Shown piece by piece: positions 18,167 through 62,263 of a stretch of 64,000 bases of DNA. The stretch is taken from NCBI GenBank assembly GCA_016184225.1, contig JACPDA010000005.1, forward strand, positions 67,590 to 131,589, read 5' to 3'. Source of the DNA: Candidatus Daviesbacteria bacterium (lineage in GTDB: Bacteria; Patescibacteriota; Microgenomatia; Daviesbacterales; UBA10151). The notes beneath the pieces are model-generated. The model did not search any database and had not been told where the DNA came from. It saw only the letters and a list, made by a program, of their open reading frames with translations. The stretch's first letter is position 1. Every line of letters starts with the position of its first letter. The position numbers and the translations under genes are program-made.

Positions 18167-19183
18167 ATGGGAATTATAAAATACACAATTGTTACTTTAG
18201 GTTCTCACTCCGCCCTGCAAATCCTCAAAGGGGCAAAAGATGAAGGCTTTAAAACTGGCGTAGTAGCTACTCCGGATAGATTAACACTTTATAACTCCTA
18301 CAATAATTTTATTGATGAGATTTTAGAAATAGACTCCTGGAAAAATTTCCCCAGATTAGAAAAAGAGTTACTTAAAAGAAATGCCATTATAATTCCACAC
18401 GGCTCGTTTGTGGCATACCTTGGGATGGAACAAAATAAAAATATGAAAGTGGCATATTTTGGCAATAAGAAGGTTTTGGATTGGGAAGAAAACCGCAAAA
18501 TGCAAAGAAACTGGATGGAAGAGGCTAGAGTAAAAGTTCCACACCGGTTTAAAAGGGGAGACAAAATAGACCGACCGGTAATTGTTAAATCATATGGGGC
18601 TTCCGGTGGCAAAGGTTATTTTACTGCCAGAAACCAAAAAGAATTCGACGAAAAGTTAAAAGGTTACAATGAAGAACGATTTATGGTTCAAGAATATGTT
18701 ATTGGGGTGCCGCTCTATTTCCACTTTTTCTATTCGCCTTTGACCAAAAAAGTAGAATTAATGAGTGTTGATAAACGTTATGAAACAAATGTTGACTCAT
18801 TAGGCCGAATTCCGGCTAAAAATCAAAAAGGATTAAATATTGAACCGTCATTTGAGGTGGTGGCAAACATTCCATTGGCTGTTAGGGAGTCTATGATGGC
18901 GGAAGCAGTAGCAATGGCAGAGAGGGTGGTAAAAGCTTCTCAAAAACTTATACCAAGCAAAGGGCTTTTTGGTCCGTTTTGTTTGGAGACAATTATTACC
19001 TCATCTGAGGAAATTTATGTGATAGAAATCTCGGCCAGAATTGTAGCCGGGACAAATTGTTTTATAAATGGATCTCCTTATACTTACTTAAATTATGATG
19101 AACCAATGTCAACAGGAAGACGTATTGCCAGGGAGATAAAGAATGCAATAAACGCAAAGAAGCTTAAGGAGGTGCTGGATTGA
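18167..19183 (+). CDS. purP: FAICAR synthetase, archaeal type (PurP, ATP-grasp, formate-dependent)
   Basis: Strong resemblance to archaeal PurP (…TLGSHSALQILKGAK, IIPHGSFVAYLG, SGGKGYF, FFYSP…VELMSVDKRYETN). Confidence 0.8.
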   Translation: MGIIKYTIVTLGSHSALQILKGAKDEGFKTGVVATPDRLTLYNSYNNFIDEILEIDSWKNFPRLEKELLKRNAIIIPHGSFVAYLGMEQNKNMKVAYFGNKKVLDWEENRKMQRNWMEEARVKVPHRFKRGDKIDRPVIVKSYGASGGKGYFTARNQKEFDEKLKGYNEERFMVQEYVIGVPLYFHFFYSPLTKKVELMSVDKRYETNVDSLGRIPAKNQKGLNIEPSFEVVANIPLAVRESMMAEAVAMAERVVKASQKLIPSKGLFGPFCLETIITSSEEIYVIEISARIVAGTNCFINGSPYTYLNYDEPMSTGRRIAREIKNAINAKKLKEVLD

Positions 19184-24834: not shown

Positions 24835-24912
24835 TTTAGGTTTATCCTGATAAACGATTGTTCCCGGCATCATGCTTATATTTTAGCATATTTGGAATTC
24901 AACTCTAGTCAA

Positions 24913-24941
24913 ACTTGACGATCGGCCCCAATAAGTATAGT
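24913..24941 (+). promoter_or_regulatory. Promoter-like TTGACG…TATAGT with an embedded GACGATCGGCCCC half-palindrome upstream of PaaX-like gene 1
   Basis: The CGATCGG motif sits inside the promoter spacer. Confidence 0.4.
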
Positions 24942-24955
24942 CTGAAAATATACCG

Positions 24956-25456
24956 ATGATAAAGAAAAATTCATTAAGTTATTTTTTGCTTCTTGGTTTG
25001 GAGAAATCGATTCAGAGTGGCGTTTTGCTAATTGATTTTGCCTACAATTCCCACTGGTATGTTTATCCCGGGCGAGACCCAAGAGATATAAATTACGGCG
25101 CTCTTTATCAGGCAGTTAGGGATTTGCGTGAGAAAGGCTTTATTGAAACCGAAAAAGACGGCAGAAAAATTATGTTGAAATTAACAGATAAAGGTAGGGA
25201 AGAGGCAATAGTAAAAAAGCTCTTAGCAGAAGAGAAATGGGATAGGAAGTGGAGAATTGTTATTTTCGATGTTCCGGAAAAGCACCGGAAATTAAGAAAA
25301 ATCTTGCGGAGTAAACTTAGGGAGTGGGAATTTGAGCCTTGGCAGAAAAGTGTTTGGGCAGGTAAAAAGGATGTAACAAGTCCATTGCGAAATTTTATTA
25401 AAGAGGTTGGTTTATCTGATTGGGTAAGGGTGGTAGTCGGTGCTGATGTAGCTTAG
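24956..25456 (+). CDS. Short PaaX-family-like transcriptional regulator (wHTH plus WDGKW-motif domain)
   Basis: Matches the PaaX N-terminus/middle region (…KWDRKWRIVIFDVPEKHRKLRKILRSKL…QKSVWAG). Paralog of 59013..59507. Confidence 0.6.
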   Translation: MIKKNSLSYFLLLGLEKSIQSGVLLIDFAYNSHWYVYPGRDPRDINYGALYQAVRDLREKGFIETEKDGRKIMLKLTDKGREEAIVKKLLAEEKWDRKWRIVIFDVPEKHRKLRKILRSKLREWEFEPWQKSVWAGKKDVTSPLRNFIKEVGLSDWVRVVVGADVA

Positions 25457-25477
25457 GATCTCTCACTTTAGACAAAT

Positions 25478-25491
25478 AGGCCGATCGGCCT
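25478..25491. promoter_or_regulatory. Perfect palindrome AGGCCGATCGGCCT just downstream of PaaX-like gene 1
   Basis: 14-bp perfect inverted repeat. Confidence 0.5.
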
Positions 25492-25576
25492 AAACGAGTA
25501 AAGTTGTGTTACCAGAATAATCAAACCGAATGATTGATATTTGACGATAACTATAAGGTATAGTATTATTTGCTGT

Positions 25577-38977: not shown

Positions 38978-40378
38978 ATGAAACTTAAGAATTTCATTTT
39001 TCTTATTGCAACATTCATATCATTTTTGATAGGGGCCCAGGTATCTCCGGCAGTTTTTGGTGCAACGCCCACACAGTATGGCTTTACATTTCCAGTTGGC
39101 GAGCTGAATAACTGTGCAACTGTGGCAGAATGCGGAAATTACTGTGAGAAAGACGGTAATCTTCCGGCGTGCATGGCATTTGTGAAAAAGTACAAAATTA
39201 CCAAAGATGATGTATTAACATTCACTATTGATGAACTGGGTAATTGTCAGATGGGTTCTGATTGCCGCAATTTTTGCAACCGTGACGAAAATATTACCAA
39301 ATGCATTGATTTTGCCGATAAATATGACCTGCTTTCTACCAGCAATCTTGAACTGGCGCAGAAATTTGCCAAAGCAGTTGGTTCCGGAGGTGGGCCGGGG
39401 GGCTGCAGGAGCCTTGAGCAGTGTGACCGCTATTGTGACATAAGTGAACATACCAACGAATGTCTTGACTATGTGGGCAAGAAGGATTTATTACCACGTA
39501 ATGAATTGGCACAAGTTCGCAAAGTGGCAGAGGGTTTTAGACAGGGAATAGAAACCCCGGGTAAGTGTCGTGATTACACGGAGTGCAATGTTTATTGTAC
39601 TGATTCTAGCCACTCTAACGAGTGCGGAGTTTATGCTGTAAAGGTTGGTTTTATCACAACCGAGGAGGCAGAACAGGCCAAAAAATATGGCGGAACCGGT
39701 CCTGGAGGTTGTAAATCAGAGCAAGAATGTAGCGCTTTTTGTCAACAGCCATATAATCAGAGAGTCTGCTTAAGTTATGCAAACGAACATAATATAAAAG
39801 TAGATTTTAAAGGACCCGGCGGTTGTAGTGATATTTCATCCTGCACATCTTACTGTACTAAAAGTAAGTCTGATCCAGAGTGTCAAAAGTACGCTAGTCA
39901 ATACCAAGGATTTAAAGGGCCTGGCGGGTGTGAGGATGAAGCCTCCTGCAAAACTTATTGTCAGGCTAATCCTGCTGATGCGGAATGTAAACAATATGCC
40001 GGTCAATATGGCGGATTTTCCGGACCTGGAGGGTGTAGTGATGTAGGATCTTGTACTGCCTATTGTAAAGATCACTATCAAGATCAAGAATGTCAAAAAT
40101 ACTCAAGCCAGTATGGTGGAGGATTTTCCGGGCCTGGCGGGTGTAATTCAGAAAGCTCATGTAAAGCTTACTGCACTGCCAACTCTGGGGATGCAGCCTG
40201 TAAACAATATGCCGGTCAATATGGCGGATTTTCCGGACCTGGTGGGTGTACGGATGAGGCTTCTTGTACCTCTTACTGTAAGTCAAACCCCAAAGATTCA
40301 GCTTGTGCCCCATATGTTGGCCAGTATAAAGATCAATACCAACAGCAAAATCAGCAACAACAACCTCAACCACAATAG
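38978..40378 (+). CDS. Secreted cysteine-rich tandem-module protein (about 10 modules of GPGGC-x5-C-x3-C-x8-C…QYGGF, Q-rich tail)
   Basis: Signal peptide; about 30-aa modules with 4 Cys each repeated head-to-tail, ending QQQNQQQQPQPQ. Confidence 0.6.
   Translation: MKLKNFIFLIATFISFLIGAQVSPAVFGATPTQYGFTFPVGELNNCATVAECGNYCEKDGNLPACMAFVKKYKITKDDVLTFTIDELGNCQMGSDCRNFCNRDENITKCIDFADKYDLLSTSNLELAQKFAKAVGSGGGPGGCRSLEQCDRYCDISEHTNECLDYVGKKDLLPRNELAQVRKVAEGFRQGIETPGKCRDYTECNVYCTDSSHSNECGVYAVKVGFITTEEAEQAKKYGGTGPGGCKSEQECSAFCQQPYNQRVCLSYANEHNIKVDFKGPGGCSDISSCTSYCTKSKSDPECQKYASQYQGFKGPGGCEDEASCKTYCQANPADAECKQYAGQYGGFSGPGGCSDVGSCTAYCKDHYQDQECQKYSSQYGGGFSGPGGCNSESSCKAYCTANSGDAACKQYAGQYGGFSGPGGCTDEASCTSYCKSNPKDSACAPYVGQYKDQYQQQNQQQQPQPQ
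39380..40335 (+). repeat. Tandem roughly 90-bp coding repeats inside the Cys-rich protein gene
   Basis: Recurrent ggacctggnggntg…caatatggcggattttccgg blocks seen directly. Confidence 0.6.
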
Positions 40379-52045: not shown

Positions 52046-53300
52046 GTGTAATCAGTTTGTCTTGGGTTTGGCTCGCTAGATTTTTCAGTGTTACTTTATT
52101 TGATTCAGCTTCCTCAGGGCCAATGATCACAACATAAGGGATGCCTTTTTGGTCAGCATATTTGAGTTGCTTTTCCAATTTAGTCTCCGGATCCAGCCAA
52201 AGCTCAGTATTTATATTGTTCGAGCGAAGCTGAGAACATACCTCGATCGATTTTTGTTCAAACTCTTTAGACCCGCCTGCATCGCTATGCGAAGCATTGC
52301 GGGCAGGAAATACTGTCACCAAAACTTTGACAGTAGCTAAATCAGCCGGAAATAAATTCAGCTCCGTCATAGCCTCTACAATCCTGTCAAAGCCAAAGGC
52401 AAATCCGACGGCTGGGATTTGTTTATCTGCAAAAATACCAATTAGATTATCAAACCTGCCTCCGCCTCCGACCGACCCAACAGTATATCCTTCCACTTCC
52501 ACTTCAAAAATCATTCCTGTGTAATAATCCAAACCCCGGGCTAAAGTCGGTGAGAACTTATACACTGAAGAAGGAATACCAAACTTTTCCAGGTAAGTAA
52601 ATATTTGCTGAAGGTTTTCAGTAGGACTGAAGTATTCAATCTGCTGGACAATATAAGTGGCTTTTTCCGAACCGTAACCTTTTTCTATTAGTTCATTTAA
52701 TACTCCCTCTCTGCCAATTTTTTTAAGCTTATCAATAGAACGTATGATGGACGTAAGATCTTTTTCCGGTACAACACCTCTTTTAACCATCATGGAAAAA
52801 ATATTGCGGTCGTTAATAATAATCTTAAAGTTTTTAAATCCTAATTGTTTTAAGGATTCGACCACTGTGGCAATTATTTCCACATCAGCTAGGGGAGAGT
52901 TGGTACCCACGGTGTCAATGTCACACTGCAAAAATTCCCTGAACCGGCCTTTTTGTGGATTTTCCGCCCGCCAGACCGGTTGGATTTGATAGCGCTTGAA
53001 TGGAATGGGTAACTGGTTCTGATACTGTGCTACAACGCGGGCCAAAGGTACAGTCTGGTCGTAGCGGAGAGCCACTTTACGGCCACCGTTGTCGGTAAAA
53101 CGATACATCAGCTTATCGCCTTCCTCGCCGTATTTGCCCAAAAGTACTTCTTCATACTCCAAAGCCGGTGTTTCCAATGGTTCAAAACCAAAAGACTCAA
53201 AGACACTTTTAAGCTTATTTATGACAAACTGCCGCTTCCTCGATTCTCGAGGCAAAAAATCCCGAAATCCCTTTAATGTCTGTGCTTTAATTTTGTTCAT
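52008..53300 (-). CDS. hisS: Histidyl-tRNA synthetase
   Basis: Class II aaRS motifs and a HisRS anticodon-binding C-domain, 430 aa. Confidence 0.9.
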   Translation of the reverse strand: MNKIKAQTLKGFRDFLPRESRKRQFVINKLKSVFESFGFEPLETPALEYEEVLLGKYGEEGDKLMYRFTDNGGRKVALRYDQTVPLARVVAQYQNQLPIPFKRYQIQPVWRAENPQKGRFREFLQCDIDTVGTNSPLADVEIIATVVESLKQLGFKNFKIIINDRNIFSMMVKRGVVPEKDLTSIIRSIDKLKKIGREGVLNELIEKGYGSEKATYIVQQIEYFSPTENLQQIFTYLEKFGIPSSVYKFSPTLARGLDYYTGMIFEVEVEGYTVGSVGGGGRFDNLIGIFADKQIPAVGFAFGFDRIVEAMTELNLFPADLATVKVLVTVFPARNASHSDAGGSKEFEQKSIEVCSQLRSNNINTELWLDPETKLEKQLKYADQKGIPYVVIIGPEEAESNKVTLKNLASQTQDKLITLDEAIRRIQSAE

Positions 53301-58811: not shown

Positions 58812-58818
58812 GTCAAAG

Positions 58819-58902
58819 TGCCGAGGGAGGGAGTCGAACCCTCATGATCTTTAGGACCAAAGGTTTTTGAGACCTTCGCGTCTGCCATTCCGCCACCTCG
58901 GC
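58819..58902 (-). tRNA. tRNA-Leu (anticodon CAA), type II with a long variable arm; CCA not encoded
   Basis: The reverse complement folds into a cloverleaf: acceptor GCCGAGG/CCUCGGC, anticodon loop CUCAAAA, T-arm GAGGG-UUCGACU-CCCUC, discriminator A. Confidence 0.8.
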
Positions 58903-58974
58903 AATAAAAGTACTTGAGGTATTATATCAAGTTTAACTTGATGAAAAAAGGATAAAGAGGAAATTAAAGTCTGT

Positions 58975-59004
58975 ACAAATGTCCTCCGATCGTGGTACAT
59001 TTGT
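58975..59004. promoter_or_regulatory. Palindrome ACAAATGT-CCTCCGATCGTGGT-ACATTTGT overlapping the promoter (TGtGATAAT) of PaaX-like gene 2
   Basis: 8-bp arms around a CGATCG core; the ATG follows within about 9 nt. Confidence 0.5.
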
Positions 59005-59012
59005 GATAATAT

Positions 59013-59507
59013 ATGGCACGACCACCAAGCAAGCGAAAGGTTCTAACAGATTTAGTTCTTTTAGCTTTAGAGAAATCAATTGACGGGTATGTAGCGTTTG
59101 AAGATTTCATTTACAATCCACTGCTAGAAAGACCTGTTAAAAAATCAGTCCTTTCTCAGGTTATAAAAAGACTTCGGGATCAAGGTTTAGTGGAGTTTAT
59201 TAGTGATAATGAGTTAATTTTAAGATTGACTGATTCTGGTAGAGATAAAGCGCTATGGAAGAAGATGGCTCTCGGAGATGAGAAATGGGATGGGAAATGG
59301 CGGCTGGTAATATGGGATGTGCCGGAAAAAAGGAGATTGGCTAGGGATTTACTAAGGTTTAAACTTAAACAGTTAGGTTTTAAACAGTGGCAAAAAAGTG
59401 TTTGGGCTTCAAAGATAAACTGTACTAAGTTATTACGAGATTTTATCAAGCAAGTAGGAATAGAGGATTGGGTGATGGTGATTGAATCCGATAACGTAGG
59501 AGTTTAA
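59013..59507 (+). CDS. Short PaaX-family-like transcriptional regulator (paralog of 24956..25456)
   Basis: KWDGKWRLVIWDVPEKRRLARDLL…QKSVWASK; N-terminal wHTH. Confidence 0.6.
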   Translation: MARPPSKRKVLTDLVLLALEKSIDGYVAFEDFIYNPLLERPVKKSVLSQVIKRLRDQGLVEFISDNELILRLTDSGRDKALWKKMALGDEKWDGKWRLVIWDVPEKRRLARDLLRFKLKQLGFKQWQKSVWASKINCTKLLRDFIKQVGIEDWVMVIESDNVGV

Positions 59508-59508
59508 A

Positions 59509-59538
59509 CATTTGTCCTCCGATCGTGGTACAAATGTG
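59509..59538. promoter_or_regulatory. Near-identical palindrome ACATTTGT-CCTCCGATCGTGGT-ACAAATGT immediately downstream of PaaX-like gene 2
   Basis: Same 14-nt core in direct orientation with the arms swapped. Confidence 0.5.
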
Positions 59539-59590
59539 ACAAACAATGCAATCTAGACTTTTTTAACCGATTTATGTATAAGTTACTTCT

Positions 59591-62263
59591 ATGAATAAAT
59601 CTACAAAAAATGAAGTCAGGCTTCCGGTGCATGTTAAGCCTGAGCGGTACAGGATTATGCTCCGGCCGGATCTGGAGGGGTTTACATTTTACGGCGAAGA
59701 AACAATTTTTTTGGTTTTAGAAAAGCCCACCAAACAAATTACCCTGCATGCTGCTGAGCTGGAGATAGAATCGGCAGAATTTATACATGGTAACAAAGAG
59801 GTATGGGCTGGGAGGATTAATTATGATAAAAAAGCGGAAACTGCTACATTTACTTTTGCTAAAAATATTCAAAAAGGCAAAGGACAATTAAAGCTTGCTT
59901 TTAAGGGAATCTTGAATGATAAAATGCGGGGCTTTTACCGTTCCCGCTATGAAGTGAGTGGAGTATCAAAGCATCTGGCTACTACCCAGTTTGAATCAAC
60001 TGATGCCAGGAGGGCTTTTCCCAGCTTTGATGAACCCGCTCAAAAGGCTGTTTTCGATGTGACTTTAGTGGTTCCTGCCAAGACTGTGGCTATCTCCAAC
60101 ACCATTGAATCTAACATCCGAGAACATGAAAGCGGTTACAAGGTAATAGAGTTTGCCCCAACCCCGAAAATGTCTACTTATCTTTTAGCCTTTATTGTGG
60201 GGGAGTTTGAGAGTGTAGAAGTGCAAAGTGCAAAGGGCAAAGTGATAAGGGTTTTTACCACACCGGGTAAAAAAGAACAAGCCAGATTTGCCCTTGATGT
60301 AGCCGGAAAATGCTTGGATTTCTATGAACAATACTTTGGTATCTCTTACCCTTTGCCGGTGTTGGATCTTATTGCAATACCTGATTTTGCTGCCGGGGCC
60401 ATGGAAAACTGGGGAGCAGTGACATATCGCGAATCTTTGCTGTTAATTGATGAGGAGGCTTCCTCCACTGCCAATAAACAATGGGTGGCTTTAGTGATTG
60501 CCCATGAGCTGGCTCACCAGTGGTTTGGCAATTTAGTCACTATGGAGTGGTGGACCCACCTTTGGTTAAATGAAGGTTTTGCCTCATTTATTGAATTCTT
60601 GGCTATTGACCATATTTTCCCGGAGTGGGATATCTGGACCCAATTTGTAGGGAGCGAAATGGGTGAAGCTTTCTCGCTGGACGGCTTAAAAAACACCCAC
60701 CCGATTGAGGTGGAGGTGGGCCATCCGGCCGAGATTTCCGAGATTTTTGATAAGGTCAGCTATTCCAAAGGAGCCTCAATTCTGCGTATGCTTATGTCTT
60801 ATCTGGGGGAAAAAGATTTTCAAAAAGGGTTGCAATTTTATCTTAAAAAACATGCTTATGGAAATGCGGAGACCCAGGATTTGTGGAAAGCATTGGAAGA
60901 AGTTTCCGGGAAACCTGTTGGCAAGCTGATGAAAAACTGGACCTCAAAGCCCGGACATCCGGTGATAAGGTTACAGTCAACAGGCAGCAGGCTACAGTTA
61001 ACACAAAGCAGGTTTTTCTCCTCTCCAATTTCTAAAAGAAAGACGAAAGATGGTGCTGTCTGGAGTATTCCTATCACTGTCATTCTGGGGAGTTCTGCAA
61101 GGCAGAACGACTCCAGAATCGATTCTGGACAAGCCAGAATGACTAATCTATTAATGAATAAAAAATCCATGACTATTTCAGGAATTAAAGATAACGAGTG
61201 GATTAAATTAAATGCCGGGGAGGCGTCATTAGTTAGAGTTGATTATCCGCAGGAATATCTCAAGAAGCTGGAAGAGGCGGTTAAGAATGGAAAACTGCCT
61301 GCAGTGGACAGGTTGGGCCTAATCAGAGATTCTTTCTCTTTGGCAGAGTCAGGTCAAAGCCCAACCACTTTATCTTTGGAGCTGACTCAAAGTTACATGG
61401 GTGAAGAAGATTATACTGTTTGGGCTGAGCTGACGGGAAAACTGCTGCAGCTTGATTCTCTTTTAGCTCTGGAACCATTTTATCCGGATTTCAAAAAATA
61501 CGGCATAAAGATTTATCAAGATATAGGGGGTAAGCTAGGCTGGAAAGCAAGAAAAGGAGAAAAGCATACAGATTCCCTGCTGCGGGGTATGGTTTTAAAT
61601 ATGCTGGGAGGGTTTGGAGATGGGGAGACTATAAAGGTGGCTCAGGAATTATTTAGAGCTTATGTAGTACGTCATTCTGGGGAGCGCAGCGACTCCAGAA
61701 TCAAAGGGGGGGATTCTGGACAAGCCAGAATGACAAGTAGTCACGGCATTCATCCTGATTTAAAGGGAGTTGTTTACAATTTGGTGGCGGAAAACGGTGG
61801 AAAAAAAGAATTCGATACTTTGATGAAGATGTACAAGCAAGAGGAAAATCAACAGGAAAAAGATCGGATTGGCCGGGCTTTGGGGAAGTTTAAAATTAAA
61901 GCCCTTCTTTCTAAAACCCTGGATTTTTCTATTTCCAAGCATGTGAGATTCCAAAACAGTCTGCAAATTATTGCAGCTGTTTGGGCTAATCCGGTCGGCC
62001 GTTATCTGGCCTGGGAGTTTGTAAAAAAGAATTGGAAATTGTTAAAAGATAGGTATGCAGGGGGCCATTATTTTACCAAAGTTTTTGGACCGGCCGGAAG
62101 CTTTACCAAAAAAGTTGATGCCAAAGATATTGAATCCTTTGTCAAGAAAAATCCTGTCCCGGAAGCCAAAAGAACCATTGCCCAAGCCTTGGAACAGATT
62201 TATTCCAATGCAGAGTGGCTAAAAAGGGATAGACAGAAAATCAAAGATTTTCTGTTAAGATAA
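59591..62263 (+). CDS. pepN: Aminopeptidase N (M1 family)
   Basis: GAMEN and HELAHQW…E zinc motifs. Carries two in-frame palindromic repeat inserts (SSARQNDSRIDSGQARMT; RHSGERSDSRIKGGDSGQARMTS). Confidence 0.9.
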   Translation: MNKSTKNEVRLPVHVKPERYRIMLRPDLEGFTFYGEETIFLVLEKPTKQITLHAAELEIESAEFIHGNKEVWAGRINYDKKAETATFTFAKNIQKGKGQLKLAFKGILNDKMRGFYRSRYEVSGVSKHLATTQFESTDARRAFPSFDEPAQKAVFDVTLVVPAKTVAISNTIESNIREHESGYKVIEFAPTPKMSTYLLAFIVGEFESVEVQSAKGKVIRVFTTPGKKEQARFALDVAGKCLDFYEQYFGISYPLPVLDLIAIPDFAAGAMENWGAVTYRESLLLIDEEASSTANKQWVALVIAHELAHQWFGNLVTMEWWTHLWLNEGFASFIEFLAIDHIFPEWDIWTQFVGSEMGEAFSLDGLKNTHPIEVEVGHPAEISEIFDKVSYSKGASILRMLMSYLGEKDFQKGLQFYLKKHAYGNAETQDLWKALEEVSGKPVGKLMKNWTSKPGHPVIRLQSTGSRLQLTQSRFFSSPISKRKTKDGAVWSIPITVILGSSARQNDSRIDSGQARMTNLLMNKKSMTISGIKDNEWIKLNAGEASLVRVDYPQEYLKKLEEAVKNGKLPAVDRLGLIRDSFSLAESGQSPTTLSLELTQSYMGEEDYTVWAELTGKLLQLDSLLALEPFYPDFKKYGIKIYQDIGGKLGWKARKGEKHTDSLLRGMVLNMLGGFGDGETIKVAQELFRAYVVRHSGERSDSRIKGGDSGQARMTSSHGIHPDLKGVVYNLVAENGGKKEFDTLMKMYKQEENQQEKDRIGRALGKFKIKALLSKTLDFSISKHVRFQNSLQIIAAVWANPVGRYLAWEFVKKNWKLLKDRYAGGHYFTKVFGPAGSFTKKVDAKDIESFVKKNPVPEAKRTIAQALEQIYSNAEWLKRDRQKIKDFLLR
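61079..61143. repeat. Family 2 copy, in-frame in pepN (variant left arm)
   Basis: gtcattctggggagttctgcaaggcagaacgactccagaatcgattctggacaagccagaatgac. Confidence 0.75.
61671..61734. repeat. Family 2 copy, in-frame in pepN (near-perfect palindrome)
   Basis: gtcattctggggagcgcagcgactccagaatcaaagggggggattctggacaagccagaatgac. Confidence 0.8.

Follow-up and report, generated by a model that had tools for sequence, protein, structure and literature searches.

Introduction

Winged-helix repressors that regulate their own expression through a palindromic operator are a known kind of system. In Escherichia coli, PaaX binds the sequence TGATTC-N27-GAATCA and, by keeping RNA polymerase away, represses transcription from its own Px promoter (PMC9493321). 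Here we examine the gene for a shorter PaaX-like protein, together with the two 30-nt palindromes that bracket it, in a 64,000-nt stretch of DNA from Candidatus Daviesbacteria bacterium (GenBank assembly GCA_016184225.1, contig JACPDA010000005.1, positions 67,590 to 131,589 of the forward strand). This whole stretch is referred to below as the window. The two palindromes are probably the cognate operator pair of the enclosed autorepressor, inherited with it as one module.

Several repressors combine an operator at the promoter with a distant one and bridge the two by cooperative looping. These include lambda CI with OL and OR, coliphage 186 CI with its flanking sites, LacI, GalR, and DeoR. A lambda-type repressor with its operators also forms an exchangeable specificity module. 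Genes flanked by palindromic protein-binding sites are likewise found in compact insertion sequences, in REP/RAYT (repetitive extragenic palindrome/REP-associated tyrosine transposase) units, and in Xer-dependent pdif modules. The left end of an insertion sequence often holds the promoter, which leads to autoregulation by the encoded protein. To our knowledge, a second operator copy abutting the stop codon has not been described for PaaX. Our literature searches turned up no link between PaaX-like proteins and either Cas2 or the Candidate Phyla Radiation (CPR), and no description of such bracketing.

Results and Discussion

Two matching palindromes flank the gene

The gene (59013-59507, plus strand; hereafter the 59013 gene) encodes a 164-aa protein that a Pfam match and an AlphaFold2 (AF2) model describe as a winged helix joined to a Cas2-like (PaaX_M) domain, and that we propose to be an autorepressor. 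Upstream lies a 30-nt imperfect palindrome, ACAAATGTCCTCCGATCGTGGTACATTTGT (58975-59004), which is centred on CGATCG with its centre between 58989 and 58990 and is the proposed operator 1. The proposed operator 2 is a second 30-nt imperfect palindrome, ACATTTGTCCTCCGATCGTGGTACAAATGT (59508-59537), which carries no promoter features. The copies are identical at 26 of 30 positions, and the arms account for the four differences, which are AA/TT swaps. Within each copy, the 15-nt arms are 80% complementary and the outer 8 nt perfectly so. An 8-nt gap separates the upstream copy from the ATG, while the downstream copy begins at the base directly after the TAA stop codon. The original prediction, made from the window without database searches, had described two near-identical 30-bp palindromes around a PaaX-like gene, and both are present. 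It had placed the unit at 58975-59538; the start is right, and the end is one base earlier, at 59537.

The pair stands alone in the window. A search that allowed up to three mismatches found no copy in the 64 kb beyond these two, and none of 100 shuffled controls matched. The central 14-mer, CCTCCGATCGTGGT, also occurs only twice in the window, in direct orientation in both copies, as had been stated. Uniqueness of the palindrome to this spot had been named beforehand as the mark of a pure operator; with two copies in 64 kb, the operator reading is favoured on those terms. A metagenome scan with the 16-mer TCCTCCGRYCGTGGTA, too short a pattern, returned at least 120 matches that were mostly due to chance. 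Among the matches listed, three were real elements, all of them beside family genes.

Alignments of nine upstream and nine downstream spacer regions (eight orthologs each) showed that both elements are conserved footprints. Upstream, the element is the sole conserved block apart from the neighbouring tRNA gene and its promoter. Downstream, the conserved block is again the element, accompanied in several orthologs by a promoter-like block of the next gene, pepN. The rest of the spacer DNA has diverged on both sides. An earlier emphasis on swapped arms needs qualification. The swap is seen at this locus but is not conserved in orthologs L001, L002, L005, and L192, where the downstream left arm reads ACAAATG (L001, L002, L005) or ACAATTA (L192). 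As the W-tract of this arm is AAAT, ATTT, or AATT in close relatives, we regard the swap as lineage-specific and rejected it as a designed feature.

A PaaX-type winged helix fused to a Cas2-like domain

The protein matched the Pfam model PaaX_M (PF20803, 'PaaX central Cas2-like domain') with 77 bits against a cutoff of 24 (E 1.2e-21). Its AF2 monomer model (predicted local distance difference test score, 74.6) contains a winged helix, with helices at residues 7-20 and 44-56 and strands at 60-62 and 68-72, followed by a beta-alpha-beta-beta-alpha-beta domain. In a fold search, the best PDB match was E. coli PaaX (8a39, E 1.6e-5), followed by the PaaX-like structures 3l09 and 3kfw and by Cas2 chains. 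Matches also included MarR-type and other winged-helix proteins, and among those of the Cas2 type were 5xvn, 5zyf, and 3exc. At the sequence level, matches to MarR-type winged helices and to Cas2 were sub-threshold only. The Cas2 models match at E of about 1e-5 and miss their cutoffs (TIGR01573, 23.4 vs 24.5; PF09827, 14.2 vs 23.8). Precomputed PF09827 matches exist on some Parcubacteria relatives.

PaaX of E. coli and Pseudomonas (8a39, 3l09), a repressor that responds to phenylacetyl-CoA, resembles the family in its N-terminal winged helix and PaaX_M domain, and its long palindromic operator with widely spaced half-sites and its autorepression can be likened to the upstream site described here. 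The two differ in size, with 316 aa for E. coli PaaX and about half of that for the 59013 product. The latter ends at residue 164, right after PaaX_M, and gave no match to the C-terminal effector (aryl-CoA) binding domain of PaaX. The PaaX equivalog model TIGR02277 scored 25.7 bits against a cutoff of 264.55 and covered residues 51-152 only.

Across 79 aligned family sequences, three residues at the end of beta-1 never vary, namely D102, P104, and E105. The Asp of the Cas2 'YDV' motif falls on D102 in the alignment, and the family carries Asp-x-Pro-Glu at the Cas2 catalytic position, where E. coli PaaX has Ser-Glu-Gly and hence Glu. Cas2 and VapD have the same ferredoxin-like fold, and the C-terminal domain here bears the motif xxVxWDVPE...QxSVW. 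Unlike Cas2, the protein possesses a fused winged helix, scores below the Cas2 cutoffs, and is associated with a single repeat pair around its gene rather than with an array. Profile searches detected no transposase, HUH, or tyrosine-recombinase domain in it.

The family is large, with 3,060 clusters at 50% identity (E <= 1e-10), and its named matches come almost all from Patescibacteria. Genomes carry at least three to five paralogs, counted among only the 80 best loci. Public labels (NCBI, JGI) often read 'CRISPR-associated endonuclease Cas2', while others read phenylacetate repressor (examples are P0076, P0118, P0271, P0288, P0297, P0315, and P0335). Neither name fits the family context in the window and among the neighbours examined. 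There is no CRISPR array in the 64-kb window, there are no cas genes among the called genes around four related loci, and there are no paa genes among the neighbours examined. Two further assignments were tried and rejected. For membership of a defence system, PADLOC gave only sub-threshold Cas2, winged-helix, and CARF-linked matches. For a phage origin, no relatives were found in IMG/VR viral contigs, and PHROGs gave only generic winged-helix matches, for the other family gene of the window (paralog 1) only.

Bracketing recurs across the family

We surveyed 82 family genes, comprising the two in the window and 80 loci from a one-genome-per-species genome collection. These loci were the 80 best-scoring relatives, and the total locus DNA scanned was 625 kb. 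Paralog 1 (24956-25456, plus strand) encodes a 166-aa winged-helix and PaaX_M protein (64.4 bits for PaaX_M) that is 45% identical to the 59013 product, which agrees with the earlier description of the latter as a second PaaX-like paralog. It too is flanked by a pair of CGATCG-centred palindromes of about 40 nt, with arms unlike those around the 59013 gene. The upstream element lies at 24902-24941. The downstream element (25465-25504) has the core GGCCGATCGGCC and outer arms ACTTTA...TAAAGT.

Indeed, this arrangement is typical of the family. A CGRYCG-centred site lies upstream of 74 of the 82 genes, with its centre mostly at -17 to -21 (more broadly, -17 to -23) from the ATG, and follows the stop codon in 60; both sites are present in 59. 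Measured from the stop codon, the downstream centre is at +15 in 19 loci and at +14 to +17 in 29, with one group at +5. Since the same layout is found at paralog 1 and at most family members examined, the unit of about 560 bp (repeat, gene, repeat) is a discrete module, as originally proposed.

Strongly palindromic CGRYCG sites are concentrated at these positions. Out of 122 in the 625 kb, 102 flank family genes (60 upstream, 42 downstream), 8 are inside called genes, and 12 lie elsewhere. When sites in the window were scored for palindromic match out of 17, scores of at least 10 were reached only at four paralog-flanking sites. The W1 upstream copy scored 8 and an unrelated site at 52246 scored 9.

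Around the common (A)CGRYCG(T) core, the arms differ between paralogs and match within a locus. Across 16 variable arm positions, a mean of 11.1 bases was common to the two copies of one locus, compared with 6.5 between loci. The locus's own downstream copy was the single best match in 25 of 53 loci and among the top three in 42. The central RY dinucleotide was the same in both copies in 48 of 53.

More distant members keep the bracketing with other sequences. In Saccharibacteria, a perfect 32-bp palindrome stands on both sides of the gene at L076, and a 40-nt pair at L079 is 98% identical. A 46-nt pair brackets the gene at L080 (Giovannonibacteria). Three of four Parcubacteria loci are bracketed (L202, L203, L207). 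The cores of distant members are unrelated to CGRYCG (GCTATCGC, CGCGATCGCG), and some distant loci, such as L077 and L205, are without the bracketing.

Another host factor, such as a recombinase, a methyltransferase/restriction system, or a nucleoid protein, might act on the CGRYCG core with the gene as a passenger. The core is common to Microgenomates paralogs while the arms vary, CGATCG contains GATC, and the arm-core-arm layout is superficially like that of recombinase core sites. We nevertheless consider this very unlikely. The elements are almost exclusive to the flanks of one gene family, their arms are paralog-specific and matched within the locus, distant members retain the bracketing with different cores, and the upstream copy is the gene's own predicted promoter.

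Only the upstream copy resembles a promoter

A promoter is predicted inside the upstream element (58972-59001, plus strand) by consensus match only. It consists of the -35-like hexamer TGTACA (58972-58977), an 18-nt spacer that holds the CGATCG core, and the extended -10 TGgTACATT (58993-59001). Transcription is predicted to start near 59008, which would give a leader of about 5 nt. The original prediction had instead taken TGTGATAAT (59002-59010) as the -10 of the gene. That is unlikely, as only 2 nt lie between this sequence and the ATG and orthologs do not conserve it.

The same architecture emerges from a profile of 58 upstream copies, which reads T-t-g-a-C-A-A-A ... A-CGRYCG-T-G-g-T-A-t-A-a-a-T-G. 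Counted from the centre (c), TTGACA occupies c-18 to c-13, the 18-nt spacer includes the core, TGnTAtAAt occupies c+4 to c+12, and the ATG lies at about c+18. Because the family promoter ends near the ATG, the transcript is predicted to start at or next to the ATG in most relatives, and the 59013 gene is probably leaderless. Only 11 of 58 long open reading frames (ORFs) in the window are preceded by a Shine-Dalgarno-like motif, and inspection by eye showed a TGnTATAAT-type extended -10 a short way ahead of the ATG at many operon-first genes. Examples are the starts at 18167, 26375, 34523 (minus strand), 40405, 41569, and 59591. Judged from these signals, leaderless or near-leaderless mRNAs look like the norm in this organism.

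The downstream counterpart, profiled from 39 copies, retains C-A at -14/-13, A at -4, T at +4, and T-G at +13/+14. In these copies the stop codon replaces TTG, and the TG and the T at +7 are missing. G at +5 is present in 7 of 39 downstream copies compared with 35 of 58 upstream copies. By sequence, the downstream copies are operator-like but promoter-less.

We also considered that the palindromes act in RNA, as hairpins that terminate transcription, stabilise the transcript, or bind the ferredoxin-fold Cas2-like domain. Among relatives of Cas2 and VapD there are RNases, as the titles of the PDB matches 3exc and 3ui3 indicate, the downstream copy would be transcribed at the mRNA 3' end, and a modest hairpin of -11.7 kcal/mol is predicted. 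The details of the sites make this highly improbable. Counted outwards from the centre, family copies are strongly symmetric at positions 1-4 and 12-15, and the middle of the would-be stem pairs in only about 55% of them. Mismatches in the downstream copies are mostly not of the wobble type (200 other vs 60 wobble-type). Folding z-scores were only -0.9 for the downstream and -2.3 for the upstream copy, with 37 and 8 of 200 shuffles, respectively, folding as well or better. The symmetry runs through the centre and leaves no loop, there is no adjacent U-tract, a terminator scan found no terminator there, and no Rfam family matched. Moreover, the upstream copy precedes the predicted transcription start and yet shares both arms with the downstream copy. 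The symmetry of core and outer positions, the non-wobble mismatches, and the weak folds together fit a protein-DNA site better than a hairpin. This pattern points to a symmetric protein whose contacts would be with the core and the outer CA/TG positions, the stretch between them being paralog-specific.

The unit keeps its place beside tRNA-Leu

The divergent upstream neighbour is tRNA-Leu(CAA) (58818-58902, minus strand), so the unit does adjoin a tRNA-Leu gene as first reported. The tRNA gene has its own extended -10, TGATATAAT, at about 58921-58929 on the minus strand, and this promoter block is conserved in the ortholog upstream alignment. DnaB is encoded upstream, and an M1 aminopeptidase ('pepN', Peptidase_M1) and EF-P are encoded downstream. 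Paralog 1 neighbours a gene for SAICAR synthetase.

Synteny was judged from pairwise DNA collinearity among genomes that carry a family gene. Nearest-ORF homology had been dropped as too crude, as paralogs reach 65-79% identity. All 13 related loci that carry tRNA-Leu(CAA) have it upstream on the opposite strand (L001-L010, L012, L021, L023). Their proteins are 61-87% identical to the 59013 product, and the tRNA gene is adjacent in 11. At L002, an insertion of about 870 bp separates tRNA and gene, and at L023 the tRNA gene is about 340 nt away. Other paralog groups have conserved neighbours of their own, among them PBP2/DprA, CarB, and a GH1-type enzyme (identified by eye from translations). 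At other loci too the neighbours are housekeeping genes, and no function is common to them. These group-specific syntenic neighbours indicate that the paralogs, which are about 45-67% identical, are old and vertically inherited.

Family genes may be enriched beside tRNA genes. One paralog group (L053, L055, L058, L065, L070) lies between tRNA-Pro(CGG), on the minus strand, and tRNA-Arg(CCT), on the plus strand. Further groups abut tRNA-Trp, tRNA-Cys, or tRNA-Arg, and L041, L047, L052, L067, and L078 are also among the tRNA-side loci.

This setting had led to the suggestion that the unit is mobile or was inserted at a tRNA hotspot. In one form of that account, the unit of about 560 bp would be a mobile or formerly mobile cassette, a minimal selfish element inserted by tRNA-Leu, whose palindromes are end sites cut and joined by the encoded protein, with its retained Asp in a Cas2-like domain, or by a host recombinase. 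The unit does have the look of a compact insertion sequence, with binding ends, a promoter in the left end, and a right end just past the stop codon. The invariant D102, in contrast to the Glu of E. coli PaaX, several paralog groups that adjoin tRNA genes, and the fact that the two copies change together, the central RY included, all suit this account.

Comparisons between close relatives add to it. Gene-content indels often abut the cassette, on either side of it, although the background indel rate was not controlled for. Such indels were seen in the pairs W1/L060, L014/L016, L059/L061, L063/L068, and W2/L002, and in W1/L060 the cassette DNA is 88.6% identical compared with 74-80% for the neighbours. 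A further case involves two Curtissbacteria loci whose proteins are 96% identical, L072 (2676-3430) and L073 (3330-4653). Here the homology block is 92% identical in DNA from one element edge to the other. It starts at the outer boundary of the upstream element, stops some 12-17 nt beyond the downstream element, and is found to one side of a conserved 108-nt proS 5' segment in one genome and to the other side in the other. This segment holds the proS 5' end and promoter; a tRNA-binding-domain gene and another proS 5' end are additional features of L073.

Even so, we judge a cassette of this kind improbable. The tRNA-Leu arrangement is kept in 13 loci down to 61% identity, the elements are conserved footprints in the aligned regions, and the paralogs are old with group-specific syntenic neighbours. 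The unit adjoins the 5' (promoter) side of tRNA-Leu, and integrases usually target the tRNA 3' end. There were no dispersed or near-identical extra copies in the 64-kb window and no solo elements, no target duplication was evident by eye outside the elements, and no integrase or transposase was identified among the immediate neighbours of the unit. The absence of relatives from IMG/VR viral contigs also counts against mobility, as does the relative orientation of the copies, which is not fixed: at L207 the downstream copy fits the upstream copy better as the reverse complement than directly. Insertion sequences, REP/RAYT units, and pdif modules thus differ from the present system, which has no recombinase domain and no dispersed copies and comprises old syntenic paralogs. 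Its sites co-vary with the enclosed gene and not with a shared recombinase.

A related and broader idea, which we regard as a long shot, is that CPR-wide proteins of the winged-helix and Cas2-like type recognise, and perhaps nick through the Cas2-type Asp, their own flanking palindromes. If this were true, a Cas2-like protein with a pair of palindromes of about 30-45 nt would be an evolutionary relative of the recognition of repeats by CRISPR adaptation proteins. Such nicking could mediate cassette duplication, relocation, or local genome rearrangement, and the L072/L073 rearrangement and the cassette-abutting indels would be its traces.

Relation to the downstream gene

The next possibility is a small regulon, in which the upstream copy autoregulates and the downstream copy serves as operator for the neighbour, here the M1 aminopeptidase gene. 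A promoter-like block of that gene (59554-59582, plus strand; ATG at 59591) consists of TAGACT, 17 nt, and TATAAG, and the downstream element ends 17 nt before its -35-like hexamer. A similarly placed block is found in orthologs L002-L005 and L009. In 54 of 79 loci, the downstream neighbour runs in the same direction as the family gene.

Some lineages carry the sites at other promoters, where they could be used as ordinary operators. L020 has a similar CGRYCG palindromic element at about 4889, 19 nt before the dprA start, which forms the dprA promoter. At L052 (about 3089 and 3944), and also at L048, two near-identical elements bracket an upstream 221-aa gene without a Pfam match and the regulator follows the second element, so that the copies sit at two promoters, that of the 221-aa gene and that of the regulator.

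As a general account of the second site, regulation of the neighbour is unlikely. At 25 of 79 loci (e.g. L024, L028, L034, L044), the next gene is in convergent orientation and the pair is still present, which argues that the second site is not simply the operator of the next gene. The same follows from its placement, since it is fixed relative to the regulator's stop codon rather than the next start and the pepN block lies at a variable distance. In addition, the neighbouring genes have no common function.

A probable operator pair for a PaaX-like autorepressor

We therefore return to the two palindromes as the operator pair of the enclosed repressor, to which we give better than even odds. 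In this model, the short PaaX-type winged-helix and Cas2-like protein probably binds as a symmetric dimer and would recognise both sites. At the upstream site, the left arm would contain the -35 and the right arm the extended -10, with the spacer between them holding the CGATCG core. Bound protein would block RNA polymerase there and repress the gene, a negative autoregulation like that of E. coli PaaX at Px. The downstream site would act with the first through cooperative looping over about 530 bp. Alternatively, it may insulate or road-block transcription at the 3' boundary of the gene. Operator, gene, and operator would be inherited as one specificity module, each paralog with its own arms. 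The reverse-complement match at L207 is allowed by a symmetric dimer site.

The likeness to looping repressors is one of layout, and bridging of the two sites would call for a hypothetical tetramer or higher oligomer. The system also differs from lambda-type ones in that its context is not that of a phage, only one site lies on either side, and the sites are about 530 bp apart with the second fixed at the stop codon. The earlier suggestion of more than a simple operator pair holds in so far as, family-wide, the second site lacks a promoter and directly follows the stop codon; the mobility attached to it found no support.

Several observations weigh against the operator-pair model. A regulator whose visible targets lie only beside its own gene has no obvious physiological output. 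Few extra sites were found (the L020 dprA promoter and L052/L048), in a view that reaches 64 kb in the window and about 4 kb around the other loci. A looping model gives no reason for the second site to lie so close to the stop codon. No downstream copy was detectable in about a quarter of the loci. Agreement between the two copies is higher in direct than in inverted register (11.0 vs 8.5 of 16), which is odd for a purely symmetric dimer site. The match between copies, even at the seemingly neutral central RY, could stem from gene conversion rather than co-evolution. Finally, mutual information between protein residues and DNA positions reflected phylogenetic signal at hypervariable columns, with no signal at the recognition helix.

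Other repeats in the window

The M1 aminopeptidase ORF (59591-62263) contains two in-frame palindromic elements of about 64 nt (61080-61143 and 61672-61734). They have 10-nt terminal inverted repeats (GTCATTCTGG...CCAGAATGAC), and the first copy includes an internal 16-bp palindrome, CCAGAATCGATTCTGG. The elements add the peptide inserts ...DSRIDSGQARMT... and ...DSRIKGGDSGQARMT... to the product and resemble small palindromic elements inserted in-frame into Rickettsia genes. An exact 23-nt piece recurs in an unrelated Patescibacteria locus (L075, 5175-5197). Elsewhere, a tandem repeat (39983-40269; period 108 nt, 2.7 copies, 64% match) in the ORF at 38978-40378 is probably a repeated protein module.

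Conclusions

While autoregulation through a palindromic operator has precedent, the module proposed here, in which operators bracket the gene across the family and the one at the stop codon is promoter-less, appears to be a new form of such a system. It raises the question of what purpose a promoter-less second operator serves at the 3' end of a repressor gene, be it looping, insulation in a leaderless genome, or a role in a cassette. CPR bacteria (Patescibacteria) have tiny genomes and their regulation is poorly understood. The family described here is large and often mislabelled as Cas2, an annotation that our findings correct. It also offers candidate protein-operator pairs by the dozen, all natural and apparently orthogonal, whose differences in specificity can be read. 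Tests of a winged-helix recognition code could make use of them, as could synthetic biology in its search for parts.

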